The notes: generated from the sequence alone by a model not told the origin. A stretch of DNA of 24,000 nucleotides from Cyanobacteria bacterium P01_A01_bin.123 (GCA_039815185.1 JBCBZT010000036.1:50584-74583), one strand, 5' to 3'; shown: positions 6,979 to 16,991, counted from the first letter of the stretch. Numbers and translations: made by a program.

Positions 6979-7416
6979 ATGCGACTACTGCACACCATGC
7001 TGCGGGTGAAAAACCTAGAAGAGTCTTTGCAGTTTTACTGCGATGTCTTGGGTATGAAACTCCTGCGCCAAAAGGACTACCCCGGTGGCGAGTTTACCCT
7101 GGCCTTTGTGGGTTATGGCGACGAAGCCGACCATAGCGTGCTAGAGCTGACCTACAACTGGGGCAAAGACGAGTACGACCTAGGGGACGCCTATGGCCAC
7201 ATTGCCCTCGGGGTTGATGACATCTACGGTACCTGTGCTCAAATTCGCCTGAAGGGCGGCAAAGTGGTGCGAGAACCCGGCCCGATGAAGCACGGCTCGA
7301 CGGTGATTGCCTTTGTAGAAGATCCCAATGGGTACAAGGTGGAGTTGATCCAACTCAGCACCCGAGGCTCGGCTCAGGCTCAATCTTCCAGTCAATCTGA
7401 ACCCGTGGCGGGATAA
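6979..7416 (+). CDS. gloA: Lactoylglutathione lyase (glyoxalase I)
   Basis: [30 protein letters not shown]...[11 protein letters not shown]...VLELTYNWG...[15 protein letters not shown]...GYKVELIQ is the canonical GloA pattern. I place the start at ATG 6979. The track start at 6898 would add a 27-aa extension overlapping repeat copy A. Confidence 0.9.
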
Positions 7417-7426
7417 CGGAGGAACT

Positions 7427-8191
7427 ATGCATCTCATCTTGCCCAAACCCTACCGTAGCGGTCTCACTGCGCTTGCCAGCCTCGTCTTGATAGTCAGCCT
7501 AGGCTGTTCGCCCACCCCCCCTGAACCCGATCAACCCACTGACCCTGAGCCCCAGGCCGCAGTACCCGACGAAGCGGCTCAAGTTGATGCTCAAGCTGAG
7601 TGGGATGCTCAACAGCAACACATTGCCTCAGTGATTGAGACGAAGGATCGGGCTGAGCTGATTGGGAATTCACCGACCAAGGGCTCGCCGGATGCTGAGA
7701 TCGTGCTGTTTAAATTTTCTGATTTTGAATGCCCTTACTGCGCGATCGCCTCGGGAGACATGAAAACCTTCATGGACGGTCGCGAAGATGTGCTTTACGT
7801 GTATAAGCACTTCCCGCTGAATCGCATTCACCCAGAGGCGACCCCTGCAGCTAGGGCAGCTTGGGCGGCTCAGCAGCAAGACCAGTTTTGGCTTTATCAT
7901 GACGGGTTGTTTGCTTACCAAGCGCGTTTGGGCGAAGACCTATACATAGAACTTGCCGAAGAAATTGGGTTGGATGTTGAGCAATTCAATCGCGATCGCA
8001 ATAGTGAAGCTGCTGCTGCCGCTGTCGAAAGCGACCTAAAGTTAGCGGAAGAACTGGAACTCAGGGGGACTCCGGCGTTCTTGATCAACGATTTGCTGGT
8101 TCCCGGTGGTGCGCCGCTAGAGTTCTTTGAAGAGGCCGTGATCAGAATTCAAGAACATAACGAAGCGCAGTCCAGTCAGGCGGATAGCTAG
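7427..8191 (+). CDS. DsbA-family thiol:disulfide oxidoreductase, probable lipoprotein
   Basis: Signal peptide with lipobox (LIVSLGCSP). Proline/acid-rich linker. Thioredoxin-fold active site FECPYC (CxxC) and the downstream GTPAFLIN cis-Pro-loop region. GGAGGA lies 5 nt upstream of the ATG. Confidence 0.8.
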   Translation: MHLILPKPYRSGLTALASLVLIVSLGCSPTPPEPDQPTDPEPQAAVPDEAAQVDAQAEWDAQQQHIASVIETKDRAELIGNSPTKGSPDAEIVLFKFSDFECPYCAIASGDMKTFMDGREDVLYVYKHFPLNRIHPEATPAARAAWAAQQQDQFWLYHDGLFAYQARLGEDLYIELAEEIGLDVEQFNRDRNSEAAAAAVESDLKLAEELELRGTPAFLINDLLVPGGAPLEFFEEAVIRIQEHNEAQSSQADS

Positions 8192-8302
8192 GTTGTGTGG
8201 CAAGAGGGTATTGCCTGCCGAATCGACGGCTCGATACAGGTACCTGTTGCTCTTTTTAATTTTGATGTAGGTTTCATCCACTCGCCCGAATCATTGCTGG
8301 AT

Positions 8303-8406
8303 CTGGCTTGCCGTAGCGCACAAAGCTTTGTGGCTACGGCAAGCCAGATTGCTTGGGTGTTGGGCATCCCAGGGATACTAGGTGCATTAAGCAATCTGGC
8401 CAGTGC
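8303..8406 (-). repeat. Structured ~100-nt dispersed repeat, copy B (inverted relative to copy A)
   Basis: The reverse complement aligns to 6813-6910. Hairpin ctggcttgccgtagc-g-cacaaagctttgtg-gctacggcaagccag (8303-8347). Internal inverted repeat CCAGATTGC (8344-8352) / GCAATCTGG (8391-8399). Confidence 0.75.
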
Positions 8407-8547
8407 TATAGATACCGACGGTAACGCTGATCCAGTAACGGGCTACAAGCCTGCACCCAGCGATAGATTGTCGTGTGGCCAAACTCAATCCCGCACTCGA
8501 CCATCATCGCTTCTAAATCTCAGTAGCTCAAGCCATAACCATCTACA

Positions 8548-8574
8548 CTCTGTTTTTGCAACAGAGCCCTTTTG
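8548..8574 (+). terminator. Candidate intrinsic terminator
   Basis: ctctgtt-tttgc-aacagag (7-bp stem) followed by cccTTTTg. The stem is weak and the T-run short. It is downstream of dsbA and repeat copy B. Confidence 0.3.
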
Positions 8575-8802
8575 AAGACCTCAGACGCGAATGGCAGAAT
8601 CGTATGCCTTCATGATCGCAGAGAGCGATTTATGAAGACCGTTGAGGAACTGGAAGCCTGATTCCAGTCTGCTTAAACAGAAATAGGGAGAGGGGCGATC
8701 GCGAATGACGAGCAAGTGAAATTTGACTACTCAATTCTGACAAATTCCGCTCTGCTGGTCCATCACGTGATATTCCTACACTAGAGTGCCTTGAGAGTGA
8801 AC

Positions 8803-10251
8803 ATGATAATAGACCATGAACCCCTTACCCTTGTTTGGATTGTCCTGCCCTTGTTTGTGGGGTTCAGCATTTATCTTTTGCCCAAATTGGATCGCGTTCT
8901 GGCAGTCACCATTTCCTTGATTTCGTTGGGCTACGGGTTATGGTATGTACTCAATCCGGCACCTATAACTTTACAACTATTAGATAGCTATGGCGTCAGC
9001 TTGCTCATCGACGGCCTGAGCGGTTTCTTTATTTTGACCAATGCCATCGTAACCCTGGCGGTCATTCTTTACTGTTGGCAGAGTGGAAAAGAAGCTTTCT
9101 TCTACACCCAAGCCATCATTTTGCATGGCAGCGTTAATGCAGTATTTGTTAGTGCAGATTTGATCAGCGTCTATGTTGCTCTAGAAGTCATCAGTATTGC
9201 CGCATTTTTGCTAATCGCCTACCCTCGCACTGACCGTTCCATTTGGGTAGGGCTGCGTTATTTATTTGTGAGTAATACAGCCATGCTGTTTTACCTGATG
9301 GGGGCAGTGTTGGTCTATCAAGCCAGCAATTCGTTTGCCTTTACGGGAATATCACAGGCTCCAGCAGAGGCTATTGCATTCATTTTTGTCGGCCTTTTGG
9401 CCAAAGGCGGGATCTTTGTTTCAGGGCTATGGCTGCCCCTGACCCATTCTGAATCGGAAACACCGATATCCGCTTTACTGTCAGGCGTTGTTGTCAAAGC
9501 AGGTGTCTTTCCGCTCGTCCGGTTTGCACTCATGGTGCCTGAGATTGACTCTATCGTTCGCATCTTTGGTGTGGCAACCGCGCTTTTAGGTGTCAGCTAC
9601 GCCGTATTTTCTAAAGATGCCAAGCGCATACTCGCATTTCACACGGTTTCTCAGCTCGGGTTTATCTTGGCGGCACCGGCTGTAGGCGGCTTTTATGCGC
9701 TCACCCACGGCCTGGTGAAATCGGCCCTTTTTCTGATTGTCGGCAACTTACCGAGTCGCAACATCAAAGTGCTGAAAGAAAATCCCATACCCATCTCTCT
9801 TTGGATCACGCTGGCGATCGCGAGTTTTTCGATCTCGGGCTTTCCACTCCTGGCGGGATTTGGCGCTAAAGTACTCACCTCAAAGAATCTAGTCCCCTGG
9901 CAAGTGATCGGCATGAATATCGCCGCATTAGGAACAGCCATCTCATTTGCTAAGTTTATTTTTCTGCCCCATACTCTAGAGCGCTCTGCATATACTGTGA
10001 AAAAGGGCTTTTGGCCAGCTGTGGTGCTGTTACTGAGCGGATTGGTTCTGGCGAATGGCTTTTACTATGAAGCCTATAGCTTGCAAAACAGTGTTAAACC
10101 GCTCATTACTATTGCAGCCGGTTGGCTGGCGTATTTACTGATCTTCCAAAAGTTATCGATTAAATTACCACGTGCGGCTGAGCAGTTTGACCATTTGATC
10201 GGTGCCATGAGCCTAATGTTAACTTTCCTTTTTTGGATGGTGCTTGCATAG
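8803..10251 (+). CDS. Proton-conducting membrane transporter subunit, NuoL/M/N - MrpD family, with no partner subunits in the window
   Basis: About 14 hydrophobic helices and the family-typical core GLWLPLTHSESETPISALLSGVVVKAGVFPLVRF. The track start is TTG 8791; ATG 8803 (MIIDHEPL...) is more likely. No adjacent mrp/nuo/ndh or DabA-like gene. Confidence 0.8.
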   Translation: MIIDHEPLTLVWIVLPLFVGFSIYLLPKLDRVLAVTISLISLGYGLWYVLNPAPITLQLLDSYGVSLLIDGLSGFFILTNAIVTLAVILYCWQSGKEAFFYTQAIILHGSVNAVFVSADLISVYVALEVISIAAFLLIAYPRTDRSIWVGLRYLFVSNTAMLFYLMGAVLVYQASNSFAFTGISQAPAEAIAFIFVGLLAKGGIFVSGLWLPLTHSESETPISALLSGVVVKAGVFPLVRFALMVPEIDSIVRIFGVATALLGVSYAVFSKDAKRILAFHTVSQLGFILAAPAVGGFYALTHGLVKSALFLIVGNLPSRNIKVLKENPIPISLWITLAIASFSISGFPLLAGFGAKVLTSKNLVPWQVIGMNIAALGTAISFAKFIFLPHTLERSAYTVKKGFWPAVVLLLSGLVLANGFYYEAYSLQNSVKPLITIAAGWLAYLLIFQKLSIKLPRAAEQFDHLIGAMSLMLTFLFWMVLA

Positions 10252-10290
10252 ATTGGCTATCGAGACTTGCTGTTGCGGTTGGCGATCGCA

Positions 10291-10404
10291 CTGGTTCCCG
10301 GTGGTGCGCCGCTAGAGTTCTTCAAAGAAACCATTGTTCGTATCAAAGCCTATAAGAAGCGCAGTCTGAATAACGGACGTTTAGTGCGATTGTTCGCTTT
10401 GTAG
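10291..10404 (+). pseudogene. Orphan 3'-terminal fragment of a dsbA-like gene (37 codons plus stop)
   Basis: 10291-10322 is identical over 32 nt to dsbA 8097-8128 (ctggttcccggtggtgcgccgctagagttctt). The next ~60 nt are diverged but alignable. It translates LVPGGAPLEFFKETIVRIKAYKK..., compared with LVPGGAPLEFFEEAVIRIQEHNE... in the intact gene. There is no upstream dsbA body. Confidence 0.65.
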
Positions 10405-10661
10405 GATGCATTGCGACAAATCAATCCGTTAACTAGGAATACGCGTTTTGGGTTGGTATTGCAATTATATTCACCACAATCTGGTGCGGCATGGGTTGTG
10501 CAAAGGTTTAAGGACATGGTCATATATCAGCTTTCAGTGATTTATTAGCGATGGTGTCTATCTGCCAGATTAGGAGTAAGGGTAGAACCGAAAAAGCCTG
10601 CGGGGTTTTGGGATATTTGACTTGATGCATCGCGACACGTTCTACGCGATGAAGCGATCGC

Positions 10662-13488
10662 GCTTGATCCAGTAATTTTCGGGGTTGAGGGTTCATAGGT
10701 GGTAGATGCAGCACATGATCCTAACTTTGACATGCATAAATTGAGACCTACGGATAAACCTGGGTGACTATACTGTGACACCTTCAATATATCTACTCAA
10801 TGTCGATCCGATAAGAGTTAAACCTCTTGGCCTGAGCGTTATTGGCAACTCCTGCACATCAAATTCGTTAGCATACGTGCAACATTCAATACAAGAGGCT
10901 ATGATCGTGGGCAATTTTGAAGGCTTCCTCACAGAACATGTTAACCAGGAATGAGCTTTGGGATAAATTCGCAAATTATGAAAATTTTCTATTGGCTTGG
11001 CAAAGAACCGTAAATGTCACCAGCCGAATGGTTCATGAAAAGCTAGGAATGGAAATATTTGCATATAATCTCCAATCTAATCTTGAAGATTTGGTGCAGC
11101 AGGTCAAATCAGAAGATTTCCCTTACTCGCCTCTTGCTGATCACAAAGTTTACCTCCCAAAGCCATCGACTACTCTACGCACTATGTCATTGATGGCTGT
11201 TCCAGATGTAATTGTGTATCAAGCACTAGTTAATGTGATTGCTGATCACTCTCATTTTCACCTTGTAAGTCATGAAAATGAACACGTTTTAGGAAACCTT
11301 TATGCAGGAACCGGAAGGCGTTGGATGCTACAGCCATGGAAGCGCCAATATTCCAGGTTTGTAAAGCGCGTTGAGAAGTTATACGGCATTGGGAATTCTT
11401 GGATTGCCTCAACAGATATAGTGGCTTTTTATGACACTATTGATCATGAGAGACTATTGAGTCTAATTCGACAATATTGTGGCAAAGAAGATAAGTTTGA
11501 GAGCCTTTTTCGCCAATGTTTGTCCAAGTGGTCAGCACATAATGCAACTTCTACTATGGGTCGAGGTATCCCACAAGGTAGCAATGCATCTGACTTCCTT
11601 GCCAATCTATATTTACATGGAATAGATTGTAAGCTTATCTCTAGCGGATACCATTACATTCGATATGTTGATGATGTCAGAATTCTTGGGCCAGATAAAT
11701 CAACTGTTCAGCGTGGTCTTATATTATTTGATCTTGAACTAAAGTGTGCTGGATTGGTAGCCCAAGTTTCAAAAACAAGCGTTCATGAAATTGAAGATAT
11801 AGAGAAAGAAGTTTCGCGGCTCAGATTTATAATCACCGATCCAACTGGTACAGGTGAATATATTCTTCTTGAGACGCCTTCTCTACCTACTAGTGAGCAG
11901 GCTGGATCAGTCGAAAGCTTGGTAGAAAACACACCAAGTGAGCAAACAGAGTTTGAACAAAACGAATCGTGTAAAGATTGCCCTGATGAAGAGGAGGAAG
12001 GCTATGTTCCAGATCAAAATATTGATATACATGAATACAAATCTAAAAAACTTCAGGAACAATTACGCAATAAATTCTTAGAGGCATTTAACTTATTAAA
12101 CGATCTCGCCCGAGCTAAAGAAGCTGAGTCTCACATAACCTTTTGTTTATATCGACTTGAACCTCATATCACACTACGCAGCCAAGCAATTACCTTACTA
12201 TCTAGGTTGCCTTGGCGATCTGAAGCGATATCAGCTTTCTTAGGGCGATTTAAGAGTGATTCTTTTGTCATAGAGGAGTTAAGAAAATTTATATCTGAGC
12301 ATACAGTTTATTCTTGGCATCGTGCCAATACTCTTTGGACGCTATACAAAACAAGTGCAGCTAAGGATGTCGCACCTCAATGCAGGGAATGGTTGGCTAA
12401 TGATCAACTTGATTGGTATGCAAGAACAATTGCAGCAAGAATATTAGCAGAAGTTCCGAGTCAACACTCCTACCTAGTTGAATGCTTAAAAAAAGAGCAG
12501 AACAACACAAATGAAGATGGTGAGGCAACTTCTGTACTCCGTCAGGAATTAGCTTACAGTGCTTTTCGAAGAATAAAATCGTTTAAGAAACAATTAGCAT
12601 TACTACAACTTATTTGTTCAGATAAAAGCCCTATACTTCATCGACTAGCCATTTATATTCTTCAACAGCCTAAGTGCAAAGTAAAGTGGAACGATCTCAA
12701 ATCTTATCATAATAACTTAAGTATACTATCAGGTTTGATTGAGAAATTAGGCATATCAGATGATGTATCAAAGCCTTGCTTTATAGCTGAGACTATAACA
12801 AGAACATATCAAATTTATTTGCCTAAGACTGATCTTCGATTTCTCTATTCAAATCACTATGATAAGGCCATTGAAACTCTACGAGAATCCGTAATCTCTT
12901 TCCAAAAATCTCCTAGTTTATATGTGAGAAGCTTTCACCAATTTACACACACAACACTAATTGCATTTTATGAATATGCCCTTCCTTCAGAAGGAGGGAT
13001 ACGGACTTCGTATTACCACGATCTTATTCACAGAAAAGTATTTAAGGAAAAATGCCCGATTAGTGTGAGTACGTGGGAGAGGCTAAATGAGATGAGAAAC
13101 CTTGTTGATCACCCGATAGACAAGAAAACTCAATCTCATTCCAAAAAAATTACCGTCCAAGAAATTGAGTTTTTGCATAAACAAATTAAGGTGGCTCTTC
13201 AAGAACTCTTTGATTTTTGGTTGAGTATAAAGGTGCCGAAAAGCGATACAGCGACTTCAGATGCTATATTGACATCAGTTGAAGTCAGTACTGAAATAAT
13301 TGAAGCTACCGTAACTACTGTATCCTAGTCATGATGAAGTCTAATAATTCGCTTGGAGCACATTAACAGAAGCTCCTAGTGTATTGCGGTGGCTGTCTAC
13401 AGCTGCTCGAGCAAATCGTTAGGTAGTAGTGGATCTTCCCTTCCAAATCTTTAATTATACTTTCTGATGACGGGAAACTTCCTGTAGT
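10662..13488. other. AT-rich, HIP1-free insert (probable horizontally acquired cargo region) carrying the RT gene
   Basis: No GCGATCGC occurs between the copies at 10654-10661 and 13489-13496, whereas the rest of the window has roughly one per kb by eye. Base composition is visibly more AT-rich than both flanks. The exact borders are not defined, and no integrase or transposase is present. Confidence 0.55.
10938..13328 (+). CDS. Stand-alone reverse transcriptase fused to a HEAT-like helical-repeat region and a HEPN-like C-terminus (AbiA / UG class-1-like; candidate anti-phage RT)
   Basis: RT motifs 1/2: YLPKPSTTLRTMSLMAVPDVIVYQAL (about 11151-11231). Motif A: STDIVAFYDTIDH (Asp at 11415). 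Motif B: GIPQGSNASDFLANLYLHGID (from 11565). Motif C: YIRYVDDVRILG (YVDD at 11664-11675). Motifs D/E: GLILFDLELKCAGLVAQVSKTSV. These are followed by an acidic linker (11838-12035), HEAT-like repeats (e.g. DWYARTIAARILAEVP, SPILHRLAIYILQQP) and RNLVDH at 13095-13112. The track start is TTG 10917; ATG 10938 is more likely. Confidence 0.9.
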   Translation: MLTRNELWDKFANYENFLLAWQRTVNVTSRMVHEKLGMEIFAYNLQSNLEDLVQQVKSEDFPYSPLADHKVYLPKPSTTLRTMSLMAVPDVIVYQALVNVIADHSHFHLVSHENEHVLGNLYAGTGRRWMLQPWKRQYSRFVKRVEKLYGIGNSWIASTDIVAFYDTIDHERLLSLIRQYCGKEDKFESLFRQCLSKWSAHNATSTMGRGIPQGSNASDFLANLYLHGIDCKLISSGYHYIRYVDDVRILGPDKSTVQRGLILFDLELKCAGLVAQVSKTSVHEIEDIEKEVSRLRFIITDPTGTGEYILLETPSLPTSEQAGSVESLVENTPSEQTEFEQNESCKDCPDEEEEGYVPDQNIDIHEYKSKKLQEQLRNKFLEAFNLLNDLARAKEAESHITFCLYRLEPHITLRSQAITLLSRLPWRSEAISAFLGRFKSDSFVIEELRKFISEHTVYSWHRANTLWTLYKTSAAKDVAPQCREWLANDQLDWYARTIAARILAEVPSQHSYLVECLKKEQNNTNEDGEATSVLRQELAYSAFRRIKSFKKQLALLQLICSDKSPILHRLAIYILQQPKCKVKWNDLKSYHNNLSILSGLIEKLGISDDVSKPCFIAETITRTYQIYLPKTDLRFLYSNHYDKAIETLRESVISFQKSPSLYVRSFHQFTHTTLIAFYEYALPSEGGIRTSYYHDLIHRKVFKEKCPISVSTWERLNEMRNLVDHPIDKKTQSHSKKITVQEIEFLHKQIKVALQELFDFWLSIKVPKSDTATSDAILTSVEVSTEIIEATVTTVS

Positions 13489-13506
13489 GCGATCGCTTCT
13501 AGTGCA

Positions 13507-14949
13507 CTAAGGGGCAAACAGCTTCTCTAACTGCTTTTGCACCCAGGCGACCGGATTCGTATCGTAATCATTGTTGATCAACCCAAGCTCTCGCAGGCGG
13601 CGATTTTGCTGGGTGAGTTCTTTTTCGTGGCGACCCATTTCTTTCACGATCAAATCATAAAGGCGGGGCTGGCTTTTTAAAATCTGATTGAAGCCTTGGG
13701 GCGTGATCGCAAATACAGTCGTTTCTTCGACGGCTTCGATAGTGACTGTGCGGGGAATACCGAGCATCAACGAGAATTCACCCACGAACTGTCCTGCTTT
13801 GAGCACCGTGGGGGGGTGCTCGGCGTCATCGATGGTATAGCTCACCGCGCCGGTCAAAATGATATAAAACGCATCACCGGGATCTCCCTTCTTAAACAGC
13901 ACTTCACCCTTGCTCAAACGTCTGCGATAGCCAATTTCCACCAGCTTCCGCAACTCCACTGTGCTGCATTTTTCAATGTAAGGAATCTGACGCAGCAAAT
14001 CTCTGACGGCGACAGGTTTGGGGTAGGTTTCATTGAAGGTTTGAGTCTCCCGATGCATCTGGATATGGCGTTCATAATCTGCCGGAGAGGACTGGACCAC
14101 CAAATTAGGGTTGCGGTGCCAAACGTCATAGCGGGGTGACGCCAGTCGAATGCGGTGCTGCCTCAGGTTTTGATCGATGATGAACCGTAAAGAACTTTCG
14201 GTTTTGTGCTTCAGATCAATGTGATTGATCCAAATCCACAGCACAAAGTCTAAAGAGTTTTCGCCAAAACCCGTGAAATAAACTTCTGGCGGATATTCGT
14301 AAGAGACGGTTGCTTCTAAATATGCCGAATCGAGTAGCGCCTCAATCACCACCACAGGATCGCTTTCGTGGGCAACGCTAACGTAGACAGGCACCCAGCC
14401 TTTGGTGTTGTGATAAGTCCAGTTGATCACATGGGTGCCCACAAGGCTGCTGTTGGGGATGACGATATGCCGTTTGGTAATGGTCTGAATCACCGTAGAA
14501 CGCAGGGAAATTTCGGCAATGTATCCCGAGAGCCCTTCCCACTCTACAAAATCGCCCACTTTAAGCTTTTGTTCGACCAATATGGCGATGCCGCTGGTGA
14601 AGTTGCGAGTCAGATCTTGCAAGCCAAAGCCAATGCCAATGCCCAAGCTACCCACCAAGACGGCAATAGAGGCAAGGTTGATGCCTAGGGCTTGCAGCAA
14701 TATGATGCAAACCATCATCCCTGCCCCGTAGCTGGTAATCGTGGCAATCGATTCACGGGTACCTTGCTTAAATCCTAAGCGTCCTAAAATCTGGTTCGAT
14801 AGTAGACGCTTAAAACCTAGGGAAAACAGCAGCGCCATCAGCAGGGCGAGCATAAACTGCGCGATCGCGCTCAGGGTCAAAGCTGAGCCACCAATGTTGA
14901 GAAATGGCGTGTCCAGCACTTGCTGAAGCGTCTCTAGAAAATTGCCCAT
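13507..14949 (-). CDS. MscS-family mechanosensitive channel with C-terminal cyclic-nucleotide-binding domain
   Basis: N-terminal TM helices and the MscS beta-domain block (GDFVEWEGLSGYIAEISLRSTVIQT...IVIPNSSL). C-terminal cNMP-binding signature (LFKKGDPGDAFYIILTGAV...GQFVGEFSLMLGIPRTVTIEA). Confidence 0.85.
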   Translation of the reverse strand: MGNFLETLQQVLDTPFLNIGGSALTLSAIAQFMLALLMALLFSLGFKRLLSNQILGRLGFKQGTRESIATITSYGAGMMVCIILLQALGINLASIAVLVGSLGIGIGFGLQDLTRNFTSGIAILVEQKLKVGDFVEWEGLSGYIAEISLRSTVIQTITKRHIVIPNSSLVGTHVINWTYHNTKGWVPVYVSVAHESDPVVVIEALLDSAYLEATVSYEYPPEVYFTGFGENSLDFVLWIWINHIDLKHKTESSLRFIIDQNLRQHRIRLASPRYDVWHRNPNLVVQSSPADYERHIQMHRETQTFNETYPKPVAVRDLLRQIPYIEKCSTVELRKLVEIGYRRRLSKGEVLFKKGDPGDAFYIILTGAVSYTIDDAEHPPTVLKAGQFVGEFSLMLGIPRTVTIEAVEETTVFAITPQGFNQILKSQPRLYDLIVKEMGRHEKELTQQNRRLRELGLINNDYDTNPVAWVQKQLEKLFAP

Positions 14950-15249: not shown

Positions 15250-16095
15250 ATGCAGAAATCTGGTTGGGATGCCCGCCGTCGAAATCGCAATATGGGTACT
15301 GCCAAGTCTGGTCATGGCCAAGACAAGCGGCTCACTATCCCAGAGTCATGGGCCGACAACCGTCGCTTTTACGAAAGGCTCCACAACCCAGTTGCACTAG
15401 CACGTGAAATCAACGGACATAGACTTACGTTTCTGATCGAAGCGACGCACGCTGATTTTTGTCATGCCTGCACCCCCCAAGATATTGAACGGGTGCTTGA
15501 GCTGATACCACTGGATCATCTCGCGCCGATCAGACTGATTGTGTTGAGACAGCCGAAGCGTAAAGAACTTATCCTCAATCCGGTTTGGGGGAGGCTCCAG
15601 TATTGGGCTGATATGGGGCCATACTCAGGGCCTGCGATCCACCTCGAAGCACAGCCTGTCAATGCCACCTATCGATGGCCCAAGTCGCTAACCCCAGATC
15701 AGGCACTTGAATTGAACCGTCTCGAACAAGAGGGGCACCAGATTCGCAGCGATCGCCGATATCATCACATCACGAGCAACTTCGAAGCCCTGCGGTATAC
15801 CCAGCTTTATCGCACCACCCCCCATGAGATTGGCCACTATGTCGATTATTTGGAAAGCGTGACGATCCCCGCAGGCGAAGATGTAGTTGAACGGCAGCAG
15901 TTAGACAATCGGTATGCGTCTAAACCCACGAAAGATAAAGAAGACTTCGCCAACCGCTACGCAACTGAGTTCCTGACACAGCAAGTCCAAAGAGGCCGTT
16001 TACCGTTCGATCGATTATTGGATCGTAAACAACTGAAAAAGGCTGGGCTTGATCCTGCATGGTTTAGTCATCCTCATGCGGTTGATCCGCTTTAA
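15250..16095 (+). CDS. Hypothetical protein with an HExxH (zinc-metallopeptidase-like) motif
   Basis: 281-aa ORF with native-looking composition, a basic N-terminus and a single TPHEIGHYVDY motif. I do not recognise the family. The start could instead be the second ATG at 15292. Confidence 0.5.
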   Translation: MQKSGWDARRRNRNMGTAKSGHGQDKRLTIPESWADNRRFYERLHNPVALAREINGHRLTFLIEATHADFCHACTPQDIERVLELIPLDHLAPIRLIVLRQPKRKELILNPVWGRLQYWADMGPYSGPAIHLEAQPVNATYRWPKSLTPDQALELNRLEQEGHQIRSDRRYHHITSNFEALRYTQLYRTTPHEIGHYVDYLESVTIPAGEDVVERQQLDNRYASKPTKDKEDFANRYATEFLTQQVQRGRLPFDRLLDRKQLKKAGLDPAWFSHPHAVDPL

Positions 16096-16846
16096 GCATT
16101 GCCATCCAGGTCATGTCATCCTGACTCAATGAAGGATTAGGGGGTTGTGCATAATCAATCGCTAAATCTAGAGCTGCCTCGGCATAAATTTGGTTTAGGA
16201 GGGCAGCTAAATCAATCACAGGTTCAGGGTCACTTGACCTCAACGGTAATGGAAAGCGAGGGATCGCTTCCCTTAAGTCAAACGGATAGCGAGCTGCTGT
16301 TGGACGGTCGCGGACACAACTGACCAAGATTTGATAATCAGACTTCCGTCCTCCTTCTACTGGCATTGGTTTCCCGGTTCTGAGCAAATCAATTTCAACC
16401 AGATGAGTCGGACTCGATAAGATGCTTTGCCGTTTCTCCAAATATTGAGTACGACCTTCCCCAGCACGTTTGTTCTTGGGGGAAAGCAGCTCAACAACTG
16501 TAACAACTCGGTTTGTTTCCACTTCCCGAATTTCTAAGTAGCGTTCAGTAATTTCTTCGGTCATCGGCACGCTAACACGCTCTGGTTTGCTCAATACAGC
16601 AGTCCGTTGAGCAGCCTCAACCCTAACTGTGGGTCTTTTTTCAAATACTGATGTATCTGGGATACCGACCAAAATGGCATCCAAGTAAACCCTTTTTTCC
16701 ACCGCAGCTCGATATTTAGGGGTTATTTCCAGATTCAGCGTTCTCATCAGAGCACCGATTAGCCCGTAGTGAACCTCTGGCCACAGAGCAGGGTTTTCGA
16801 GATATGGGTTCATGCCTGGAAAAGCAGGTCGATTAGCCATAGTCAT
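16064..16846 (-). CDS. DUF4058-family protein (Uma2/PD-(D/E)xK-like fold suspected)
   Basis: The N-terminus PAFPGMNPYLENPALWPEVHYGLIGAL is the hallmark DUF4058 start. VVELLSPKNK and LVEIDLLR blocks are present. The start is set at ATG 16846 or 16840 (MTMANRP...) rather than the track start at 16906. Confidence 0.7.
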   Translation of the reverse strand: MTMANRPAFPGMNPYLENPALWPEVHYGLIGALMRTLNLEITPKYRAAVEKRVYLDAILVGIPDTSVFEKRPTVRVEAAQRTAVLSKPERVSVPMTEEITERYLEIREVETNRVVTVVELLSPKNKRAGEGRTQYLEKRQSILSSPTHLVEIDLLRTGKPMPVEGGRKSDYQILVSCVRDRPTAARYPFDLREAIPRFPLPLRSSDPEPVIDLAALLNQIYAEAALDLAIDYAQPPNPSLSQDDMTWMAMLKADQPHEDD

Positions 16847-16991
16847 GCGATCGCGCCTAATACTTGCTCTTATTCTATCGATGCGGCATCCGATGACGTT
16901 GTTCAAGCCAAACGCGAATTTCGGTGTCTATTCTACTCATCCCCTCCACCGTAAGCAGTCTTAATTAGACAAACAAACAGTTGATTGCATT

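Follow-up and report, generated by a model that had tools for sequence, protein, structure and literature searches.

UG19 is a group of UG/Abi reverse transcriptases (RTs) known so far from classification. In UG19-large, as described, a Class 1 UG/Abi RT is joined to a domain with distant likeness to HEPN, UG19-small carries the same HEPN-like domain as a separate gene, and a defence role has been predicted for UG19 (Mestre et al. 2022, PMC9226505). The literature that we found on UG19 consisted of classification studies only, with no experimental test of any UG19 protein. AbiA from Lactococcus (PDB 8oz7) is the only RT-HEPN fusion that has been studied. Its HEPN domain mediates dimerisation, and deletion of that domain abolishes polymerase activity; the priming tyrosines lie in the loop that links RT and solenoid; and R581A/H588A leave defence intact, with no RNase activity detected (PMC11077055). 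In DRT4, the priming residue is Tyr125 (PMC12783706).

The gene described here lies in a cyanobacterial window (the whole stretch of DNA that was analysed, 24,000 nucleotides), and its product is almost certainly a UG19 member. It belongs to a known, catalogued group and not to a new kind or a new subgroup, and the locus would open no new category of system. Its bearing is on whether the untemplated synthesis of Class 1 reaches UG19, and on whether the conserved HEPN motif matters in RT-HEPN fusions. The locus makes a clean specimen: its single-gene cassette is intact and has what appears to be its own promoter, a well-defined domain map (Table 1) and specific residues that can be mutated (D245/D246, R720/H725, Y122 and S319), and its source is cyanobacterial, where defence RTs have been little explored.

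The gene and its place in UG19

The open reading frame on the plus strand, which ends at 13328, has possible starts at TTG 10917 and ATG 10938. The ATG gives a protein of 796 amino acids, agrees with the N-termini of the homologues and is the start used by an independent gene caller, and the single-gene RT of about 800 amino acids that had been predicted at 10938-13328 was found intact. The exact protein sequence was already in NCBI, labelled 'RNA-directed DNA polymerase'. When the protein was searched with the PADLOC models, the best match was to RT_UG19 (PDLC03756), with an E value of 1.3e-155 and residues 8-761 aligned to positions 3-561 of the 562 in the profile. The runners-up were UG21 (E 9.6e-66) and AbiA (E 1.8e-16), and several NCBIfam models fell short of their cutoffs (Drt4 48.3 against 450, Drt2 44.3 against 390, Drt3a 55.3 against 200 and Drt5 36.5 against 550). 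In a rough Neighbor Joining tree of the RT domain (228 columns), built from the window clade, canonical UG19, GIIM and RT-Cas1 sequences, the window clade was monophyletic (100/100) and grouped with canonical UG19 (87/100), apart from the GIIM-type and RT-Cas1 sequences.

Judged from its sequence, then, the protein is a UG19-large RT of Class 1 UG/Abi, within a divergent branch of Cyanobacteria and Chloroflexota. The original prediction had proposed an uncharacterised member or a new subgroup. The first part holds, since no UG19 protein has an experimental test on record, but the second overstated the novelty of the gene, given the strength of the RT_UG19 match and the publication of UG19-large in 2022. 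The window branch shares with canonical UG19-large the RT, the helical domain and the fused, distantly HEPN-like tail, with an R-N...H-P-x-D signature common to both. However, identity between the two is only 31-35% for the RT and 22-26% for the tail, the HEPN spacing is Rx4H in the window branch and Rx6H in the canonical one, and the main canonical group carries Val at the position of Tyr122, which does not vary in the window branch. The window protein is also about 100 amino acids longer because of an acidic disordered linker of about 70 amino acids with a conserved SEQA island.

Table 1. Positions in the window of the UG19-large gene, its encoded domains and its flanking elements
Feature	Position	Strand	Basis
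Leader conserved with the gene	10840..10937	+	-10-like block and short 5' UTR; blastn homology to L001
-10-like block GGCTATGATCGTG	10897-10909	+	TATGAT at 10900-10905
UG19-large gene	10938..13328	+	796 codons plus stop codon
RT fingers/palm domain, residues 1-296	10938..11825	+	RVT_1, invariant motifs, Foldseek
Catalytic YVDD, residues 243-246	11664..11675	+	motif search, homologue alignment
Disordered acidic linker, residues 297-366	11826..12035	+	pLDDT <50, composition
SEQA island, residues 319-322, inside linker	11892-11903	+	S319/E320/Q321/A322 conserved
Helical solenoid (alpha-Rep-like), about residues 367-580, 12 helices	12036..12677	+	AF2 model, Foldseek
C-terminal helical tail, about residues 581-767; HEPN-like core about 634-763	12678..13238	+	model, structure neighbours, profile
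Rx4H HEPN signature R-N-L-V-D-H, residues 720-725, then P-x-D	13095..13112	+	alignment
3' untranslated end of cassette, two hairpins	13329..13414	+	fold z -1.0

Domains and conserved residues

The only Pfam domain found in the protein was RVT_1 (residues 151-283). D160, D166, Y243, D245 and D246 were invariant among 27 homologues, an invariant RGIPQGSNASD was present in the RT domain of the homologue alignment, and the palm and finger motifs, including the catalytic YVDD, are intact as first reported. Foldseek matched the RT domain to group II RTs and to UG/Abi RTs, and the best local matches of the palm, by sequence and by structure, were RTs of the group II intron type. These matches would suit a gene without a defence function, either the remnant of a selfish group II intron-like or retron-like element or a domesticated housekeeping RT in a variable region, but we consider such an origin very improbable. 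Pfam found no maturase/GIIM or endonuclease domain in the protein, TIGR04416 (group II intron RT) scored 94.8 bits against a 300-bit cutoff, intron RNA was not found, and the clade stood apart from GIIM RTs in the tree. An Rfam search gave no match at the gathering threshold in the whole window, and only one chance match at E<=1 over 10250-13600. The retron motifs VTG and NAxxH are absent from the protein, and the retron NCBIfam models reached at most 32.7 bits against cutoffs of at least 235. No TR/VR pair of a DGR was found in 7000-14000, where no direct repeat exceeded 28 nt besides a 65-nt duplication of DsbA sequence. All of these searches bear out the original prediction, in which maturase/X and endonuclease domains, flanking intron RNA, the VTG/NAxxH signature and DGR template or variable repeats had each been listed as lacking.

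Tyr122 lies in a flexible loop (GNLYAG) of the RT domain, and its number is close to that of the DRT4 priming residue, a correspondence by number alone. A profile search against PDB sequences, run to match Tyr122 with DRT4 Tyr125, aligned DRT4/UG15 only at residues 204-285 (E about 0.009). No priming residue common to the whole family could be nominated, Tyr122 being invariant in the window clade but Val in the main canonical group.

The linker, which had been noted as some 65 residues of acidic low complexity after about residue 300, contains 19 acidic residues and one basic residue (net charge -18), was modelled at pLDDT <50, and is specific to the window clade, being absent from canonical UG19. 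Among the hydroxyl residues of the linker, T300 and S319 are conserved but Tyr309 is not. In the AF2 model (pLDDT 78 overall) the linker is followed by 12 solenoid helices at residues 370-575 with pLDDT of 84-97, where at least three HEAT-like helix pairs had been recognised from the sequence. The Foldseek comparison that had been suggested gave long alignments extending past the RT, with DRT6 9wy8 (TMt 0.63), DRT4/UG15 9vdo (0.59), AbiK, Abi-P2 and AbiA. Together with the end-to-end RT_UG19 match, these alignments agree with the predicted Class 1 UG/Abi architecture of an RT with a C-terminal alpha-repeat. Both the solenoid (+9) and the tail (+5) are basic.

The best global structural matches were DRT4 (UG15) and DRT6 (9vdo, 9l9s and 9wy8; TMt 0.59-0.63 over 530-640 columns), which resemble the window protein in being single-gene systems with an RT and a helical domain. 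In contrast to it, they have no HEPN tail and are hexameric, whereas a HEPN-driven dimer would be expected for the window protein, and the Drt4 NCBIfam model scored only 48 bits against its cutoff of 450. AbiA, which Foldseek aligned over about 790 columns, likewise has a flexible loop between RT and solenoid. It nevertheless belongs to a different UG/Abi group, and its PADLOC model matched residues 68-250 only (E 1.8e-16). The UG19 tail profile had no match to 8oz7 even at E<=10, and AbiA has Rx6H and a loop of 20 residues in place of the acidic linker of about 70. Its activity has been demonstrated, whereas that of the window protein is predicted.

The tail of about 160 amino acids that was originally described as HEPN-like was modelled as a confident helical domain (pLDDT 92). 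All of its well-superposed structural neighbours were HEPN proteins (3o10, 2hsb, 1ufb, 1wol and 8yuf; TMt 0.48-0.70), and every one except 8yuf gave a TMt of 0.59-0.70. It is homologous along its whole length to the tail of canonical UG19-large and is part of the RT polypeptide, not the product of a separate gene. All 62 clade members compared have R720 and H725, which the canonical branch also keeps, with the Rx6H spacing. R, the next N, and H-P-x-D are invariant in both UG19 branches, whose tails are only 22-26% identical. The top PDB matches of the tail profile were HEPN toxins of HEPN-MNT pairs, 8xdj (E 8.8e-4) and 8yuf (1.2e-3), both marginal, with the motifs aligned (RNQTSH in the HEPN toxin, RNxxxH in general form). 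The Pfam matches were weak (NTase_sub_bind 0.0046, HEPN_RiboL-PSP 0.075 and Abi_C 0.11), and the likeness to the toxins, seen also by structure, is itself marginal at E of about 1e-3. Those toxins are stand-alone proteins of about 139 amino acids that are neutralised by an MNT antitoxin, whereas the window domain is part of an RT protein and has no MNT gene nearby.

Predicted activity of the RT and the HEPN-like tail

We regard as fairly likely an overall explanation in which the gene is a UG19-large defence cassette whose product carries out protein-primed untemplated synthesis and whose protomers are paired through HEPN. By analogy with AbiK, AbiA, Abi-P2 and DRT4, the RT and the solenoid would synthesise single-stranded DNA with no nucleic acid as template and with one of the protein's own hydroxyl residues as primer; for this step considered by itself the analogy tips the balance slightly in favour. 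The HEPN tail would pair two protomers, as in AbiA, and the pairing would unite two R-x4-H motifs into a cleft that binds nucleic acid and possibly cleaves RNA. On infection, DNA synthesis, perhaps together with RNase activity, would then become a means of blocking phage replication or host growth. Lying where AbiA has the loop with its priming tyrosines, the acidic linker may hold the priming residue, or may mask basic surfaces until triggered.

Catalysis by the HEPN tail is a tentative proposal that we rate below even odds, and conservation of the motif does not prove it, because substitution of the corresponding R and H in AbiA left defence unaffected and RNase activity was not seen. An alternative that goes further makes the tail an active RNase and the actual toxin, with the RT and solenoid as its sensor or licensing module. 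DNA synthesis or the binding of a phage protein, for instance, would free the HEPN dimer, and RNA cleavage and growth arrest would follow, as in HEPN abortive-infection and toxin-antitoxin systems. The invariance of R, N and H-P-x-D across two branches with such dissimilar tails would fit this alternative, as would the position of a catalytic toxin from a HEPN-MNT pair as nearest neighbour in both sequence and structure, the basic charge of tail and solenoid, and the existence in UG19-small of the domain as a separate gene, which is often so for effectors. We nevertheless think it unlikely. The only studied RT-HEPN fusion, AbiA, speaks against it on the grounds just given, a cognate antitoxin or MNT gene was not found nearby, and the catalytic residues of the RT are just as invariant as those of the tail, so that polymerisation must also be under selection.

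Beyond the favoured explanation of protein-primed synthesis by HEPN-paired protomers, it is interesting to speculate on the features peculiar to the window branch, in a joint reading that we consider quite improbable. The SEQA island of the linker might supply a serine priming site, or the linker might act as a nucleic-acid mimic that masks the basic cleft of solenoid and HEPN and is moved aside by a cue from the phage. The HEPN domain, with its invariant Rx4H, would then be an RNase with catalytic activity, for which DNA synthesis gives the licence, and the branch-specific features would be functional innovations and not drift. If true, DNA synthesis without a template and the cleavage of RNA would be coupled in one polypeptide, a combination that no UG/Abi enzyme is known to have.

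Flanking sequences, mobility and genomic context

DNA homology to the nearest relative, a locus in a different context (L001), spanned only 10840-13321 by blastn, which places the left limit at 10840. Within the leader, 8 of 11 loci kept a GCTATAnTTGT block, which precedes the ATG by about 45-55 nt in the alignment and by 29-41 nt in the window. No neighbouring ORF was conserved across the homologous loci, in agreement with the predicted absence of a partner gene. By sequence comparison the conserved unit is the gene with its 98-bp leader, a stand-alone cassette.

Upstream of the gene is a spacer of 686 bp with no convincing ORF, which could be thought to supply an RNA template. Several defence RTs are known to work in that mode, and in a scheme modelled on DRT2, DRT3a, DRT9 and the retrons an adjacent or embedded ncRNA would be copied into a defined cDNA for defence. 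For this gene we judge such a scheme very improbable. The closest relative shares nothing downstream and only the 98 bp upstream, and those 98 bp resemble a promoter with a short UTR and fold less well than shuffled sequences (z +1.7). The remainder of the spacer holds gene debris, the 65-nt duplicated 3' end of DsbA, and the flanks showed no conservation, stable structure or Rfam match that would indicate an upstream or downstream ncRNA. The Rfam and retron-motif searches were empty, and UG19 belongs to Class 1, whose studied members are untemplated. The comparisons of conservation and folding covered the flanks of the ORF. A minus-strand ORF at 10520-10714 ('NPQPRKLLDQ'), which we had taken to resemble an integrase N-terminus, was without Pfam support and was dropped.

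The gene lies in a GC trough (0.34-0.41 against about 0.50 in the flanks), and its GC content was below that of the flanks in 15 of 15 loci. None of the 11 cyanobacterial copies of the gene contains HIP1, against an expectation of about 18 sites that we estimated from local densities. The AT-rich, HIP1-free insert of the original prediction is thus supported as AT-rich foreign DNA, but the HIP1-free gap at 10662-13488 is not significant alone (P about 0.63), for which reason only the pooled absence of HIP1 across loci is informative. A HIP1-containing inverted repeat that flanks the AT-rich segment (10651-64 and 13486-99) was considered as the cassette ends and was not accepted, because it consists mostly of the palindromic HIP1 core. 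In a sister strain (L050; GCA_039820305.1) the site carries a different AT-rich sequence and the gene is absent; collinearity with that strain ends at 13414, the right limit of the strain-variable segment. The left boundary was sought in the sister strain by looking up the exact proteins of the DsbA-like gene and the antiporter gene, neither of which was on record. From its composition and distribution, the gene is evidently a self-contained single-gene cassette that moves horizontally.

In the window itself, the genes next to the RT encode an Mrp-type antiporter subunit and an MscS/cNMP channel, both of a housekeeping kind, and the lack of defence genes among them would favour a role other than defence. 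PADLOC models of TIR effectors matched the channel, but only at its residues 334-450, which coincide with the Pfam cNMP-binding domain; the match was therefore read as a shared domain, and the channel was not taken as a defence gene. Against a housekeeping role stand the patchy distribution of the gene, driven by horizontal transfer, its absence from the sister strain and the repeated occurrence of homologues within defence loci. The survey of homologues that had been called for found them adjoining BrxC and PglX (BREX), type I methylase and specificity subunits, an SspF-like gene, HmaA and HmaB, PD-T4-6 and DpdJ (Dpd). This context of BREX, type I R-M, Hma, PD-T4-6 and Dpd genes supports the candidate RT defence system first proposed, and by analogy with such loci an anti-phage defence role is probable.

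Family membership and phylogenetic placement

The best PADLOC model for the RT protein was RT_UG19, matched at E 1.3e-155 by residues 8-761 (profile positions 3-561 out of 562), followed by UG21 (1e-65) and AbiA (1e-16). No NCBIfam model scored above its cutoff (group II RT/maturase, 94.8 vs 300; Drt4, 48 vs 450; retron models, at most 33), and RVT_1 was the sole Pfam domain. UG19 was defined as a Class 1 group of the UG/Abi RTs by Mestre et al. 2022 (PMC9226505), who described a 'large' variant, in which the RT is fused to a domain very distantly related to HEPN, and a 'small' variant in which this domain is encoded by a neighboring gene, and who predicted a defense role from individual loci. 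Our literature search for UG19 returned classification studies only, that report among them, and no experimental work. The HMM match, the architecture and the homology of the tail agree that the protein belongs to UG19-large, and the phylogeny roughly supports this. The suggestion that it might form a new subgroup was not borne out, since RT_UG19 is already in PADLOC and UG19-large has been published (PMC9226505); it is an uncharacterized member of a known group. An identical protein from a cyanobacterial MAG is deposited in NCBI as 'RNA-directed DNA polymerase'.

Approximately 85 full-length relatives (760-814 aa, 42-88% identity) were found in Leptolyngbyaceae, Nostocales, Microcoleus and several Chloroflexota MAGs. 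Proteins of about 700 aa, found in Firmicutes, Bacteroidota and other groups, formed a second tier in which the BLAST match was confined to the RT. Their RT_UG19 scores (up to E 1.6e-182) surpass that of the window protein, and they therefore represent the canonical UG19-large. In a rough Neighbor Joining tree of the RT core, from a set that left out retron, DGR and other UG reference sequences, the window clade was monophyletic (100/100) and joined canonical UG19 (87/100) apart from GIIM-type and RT-Cas1 sequences; the RT domain thus does not nest with group II introns. The traits that set this branch apart are its acidic linker, its Rx4H spacing and Tyr122. Three relatives from Nodularia and Tolypothrix (P0084, P0085 and P0086; 444-473 aa) lack the RT and consist of the solenoid and HEPN-like tail alone, P0084 covering UG19 profile positions 283-561, and in a Chloroflexia locus (L017) the gene is split into four ORFs. 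Such forms may represent either degenerating copies or variants with a split gene.

Location of features in the window, the RT protein and related loci
Feature	Location	Remarks
DsbA-like gene 3' end	8096-8160	…LVPGGAPLEFF…
Repeat of DsbA 3' end	10291-10355	65 nt, 77% identity, initial 32 nt identical
IS240-family transposase remnant	8120-8281 (-)	PF13610, E 5.3e-8
Perfect 17-nt inverted repeat	8301-8317 / 8333-8349	adjoins IS240 remnant
Interval with 0 HIP1 sites	10662-13488	28 sites in window
DNA homology with L001	10840-13321	98 bp leader + ORF
-10-like block	10900-05	TATGAT
RT ORF	10917 (TTG) or 10938 (ATG) to 13328 (+)	796 aa from ATG
Collinearity with L050	22241 down to 13414	ends 86 bp past RT stop codon
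MscS-type channel	13507-14949 (-)	C-terminal cNMP-binding domain
281-aa ORF	15250-16095 (+)	no family match; HExxH-like 'HEIGH' motif
DUF4058 gene	16064-16906 (-)	E 7e-90
RT fingers/palm	residues 1-296	modelled confidently save some loops
RVT_1	residues 151-283
YVDD	residues 243-246
Linker	residues 297-366	disordered, pLDDT below 50; 19 acidic + 1 basic, net -18
S-E-Q-A island	residues 319-322	conserved, in linker
Helical solenoid	residues about 370-575	12 helices, pLDDT 84-97
Helical tail	residues about 581-767	all-helical
C-terminal end	residues 768-796	disordered
Alternative sequence in L050	JBCBQJ010000288.1, 9147-9679	36-40% GC
~89-aa downstream ORF	L005 5734-6003; L006 12472-12741; L012 12480-12749
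Split RT gene	L017 10697-12350	four ORFs

Domain organization and the HEPN-like tail

The ATG start agrees with the N-termini of homologues and with the choice of an independent gene caller. As noted, the RT motifs are intact: 27 homologues share without exception D160, D166, the RGIPQGSNASD block, Y243, D245 and D246, and the retron VTG and NAxxH motifs were looked for in the protein and are indeed absent. An AlphaFold2 model built from 27 sequences (pLDDT 78.4, pTM 0.79) was compared with the PDB using Foldseek. The best local matches were group II-type RTs, while long alignments of 530-800 columns through RT and solenoid were obtained with DRT6 (9wy8, TMt 0.63), DRT4/UG15 (9vdo, 0.59), AbiK, Abi-P2, AbiA and DRT9. 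These long alignments fit the Class 1 plan. The protein is a member of neither the DRT4 nor the DRT6 family and, although similar in plan to AbiA, does not belong to that family either. In the alignment, the acidic linker is an insertion particular to the window branch, canonical UG19 having roughly 15-25 residues there.

Four concordant lines of evidence (motif, fold, profile and Pfam), each modest, indicate that the tail is HEPN-like. All 62 clade members carry R720 and H725 (R-N-x-V-D-H-P-x-D); the aligned counterpart in canonical UG19 is R-N-Q-K-T-E-A-H-P-Y-D, and both the Rx4H of the window clade and the canonical Rx6H fall inside the HEPN Rx4-6H signature. When the tail was modelled separately (residues 540-775, pLDDT 92), all Foldseek E-values exceeded 0.6, yet the matches that superposed well were all HEPN domains, namely sacsin 3o10 (probability 0.97, TMt 0.62), AF_0298 2hsb (TMt 0.70, rmsd 3.1 A), TT1696 1ufb, ST0689 1wol and the HEPN toxin 8yuf. 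The same set of neighbors was reported for the AbiA HEPN domain by its authors (PMC11077055). A tail profile of 141 positions covering both branches had as its top two PDB matches the HEPN toxins 8xdj (E 8.8e-4) and 8yuf (1.2e-3), with RNxxxH aligned onto the toxin's RNQTSH, and weak Pfam matches were to NTase_sub_bind, HEPN_RiboL-PSP and Abi_C. The original structural reading of an RT, a helical repeat and a HEPN-like module on the Class 1 plan was accurate.

A mobile single-gene cassette and its neighborhoods

The analysis revealed single-gene autonomy, horizontal mobility and association with defense loci. No conserved neighbor ORF of at least 80 aa was found across 17 close loci beyond the local synteny of related Nostocales, and DNA homology with L001, which among genomic relatives is the nearest (81% aa identity) and has a different context, is limited to leader and ORF, in agreement with the predicted lack of a partner; as far as can be seen, the RT gene stands alone. 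An ORF of ~89 aa directly downstream of the RT is conserved in three closely related Nostocales-type loci and absent from the window and the other loci. The leader, whose -10-like block is conserved, folds more weakly than shuffles (z +1.7), the 86 bp 3' of the ORF contain two unremarkable hairpins, and an Rfam search found no RNA family around the gene. ORF-embedded RNA aside, we saw no evidence of a DRT2-, DRT9- or retron-type ncRNA at the locus.

The gene sits in a GC trough (0.34-0.41, flanks ~0.50), as had been noted, and its GC lies below that of its flanks in 15/15 loci. The absence of HIP1 was also correct, but this single gap is unremarkable (P about 0.63); the pooled copies are informative, HIP1 being missing from the gene in 11/11 cyanobacterial copies where ~18 sites in total are expected, as estimated from local densities. 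The sister strain GCA_039820305.1 (L050), whose flanks are 96-97.5% identical, carries 533 bp of unrelated, likewise AT-rich sequence in place of the RT, so the site holds different foreign cargo in each strain. Within that sequence is an ORF of 84 aa that matches no known family, and the contig stops at the end of the 533 bp.

Outside the leader, the upstream spacer of 686 bp contains debris, including the duplicated DsbA 3' end, a gene fragment 2.2 kb downstream of the original. One public Logan contig from this strain breaks at precisely position 10291; the repeat presumably accounts for the break. The IS240-family remnant is a truncated DDE transposase that retains only the first 27 residues of its domain, and it overlaps the DsbA-like gene at its 3' end. 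The 281-aa ORF is convergent with the DUF4058 gene (32-bp overlap), and the pair is also conserved in the sister strain.

Within the window the neighbors of the RT are not defense genes (Mrp-type antiporter subunit, MscS/cNMP channel, DUF4058 protein, LysR regulator). The channel matches PADLOC models for TIR effectors and PycTIR (E 5e-14), and a defense reading was rejected: the match spans only residues 334-450, the cNMP-binding domain, and thus looks like a shared-domain match open to misreading by automated defense annotation. In other genomes the RT gene is directly adjoined by BrxC and PglX of BREX (L008), HmaA and HmaB (L010), a PD-T4-6 kinase (L011) or DpdJ (L005, with homologous upstream ORFs in L012 and L016), while in L009 the methylase and specificity subunits of a type I R-M system lie upstream and an SspF-like gene lies downstream. 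This is a classical defense-island association, in line with the published UG19 prediction (PMC9226505). The taxonomic labels of L005 (Acetobacteraceae MAG) and L008 (Epsilonproteobacteria MAG) look doubtful; six HIP1 sites in 8.6 kb of L005, and non-coding RT flanks about 91-96% identical to Nostoc locus L012, suggest a mis-binned cyanobacterial contig.

Possible mechanism by analogy with Class 1 enzymes

In this protein the polymerase site is intact and conserved, a solenoid takes the place of accessory RT domains and the HEPN signature is conserved, and its gene is a useful, well-delimited test case for the UG19 group. The Class 1 enzymes studied (AbiK, Abi-P2, AbiA, DRT4) synthesize ssDNA without template, primed by a protein hydroxyl (PMC11077055, PMC12783706). 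AbiA dimerizes through its HEPN domain, whose deletion abolishes polymerase activity (PMC11077055), and in DRT4 a phage ssDNA-binding protein shields the product, which accumulates and becomes toxic (PMC12783706). The best model from these analogies is therefore that the window protein may be a HEPN-dimerized, protein-primed, untemplated ssDNA synthase, whose product, perhaps together with HEPN nuclease activity, would block infection. That the tail itself acts as a nuclease is kept alive by the deep invariance of its R and H, and we consider it rather unlikely; AbiA had no detectable RNase activity on the substrates tested, and R581A/H588A was without effect on defense (PMC11077055).

The priming tyrosines of AbiA are located in a flexible loop at the RT-solenoid junction (PMC11077055), topologically the same place as the acidic linker, where Ser319 and Thr300 are candidate priming residues. 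Tyr122 is a further candidate, invariant in the clade and located in a low-confidence loop, with Val in the main canonical group.
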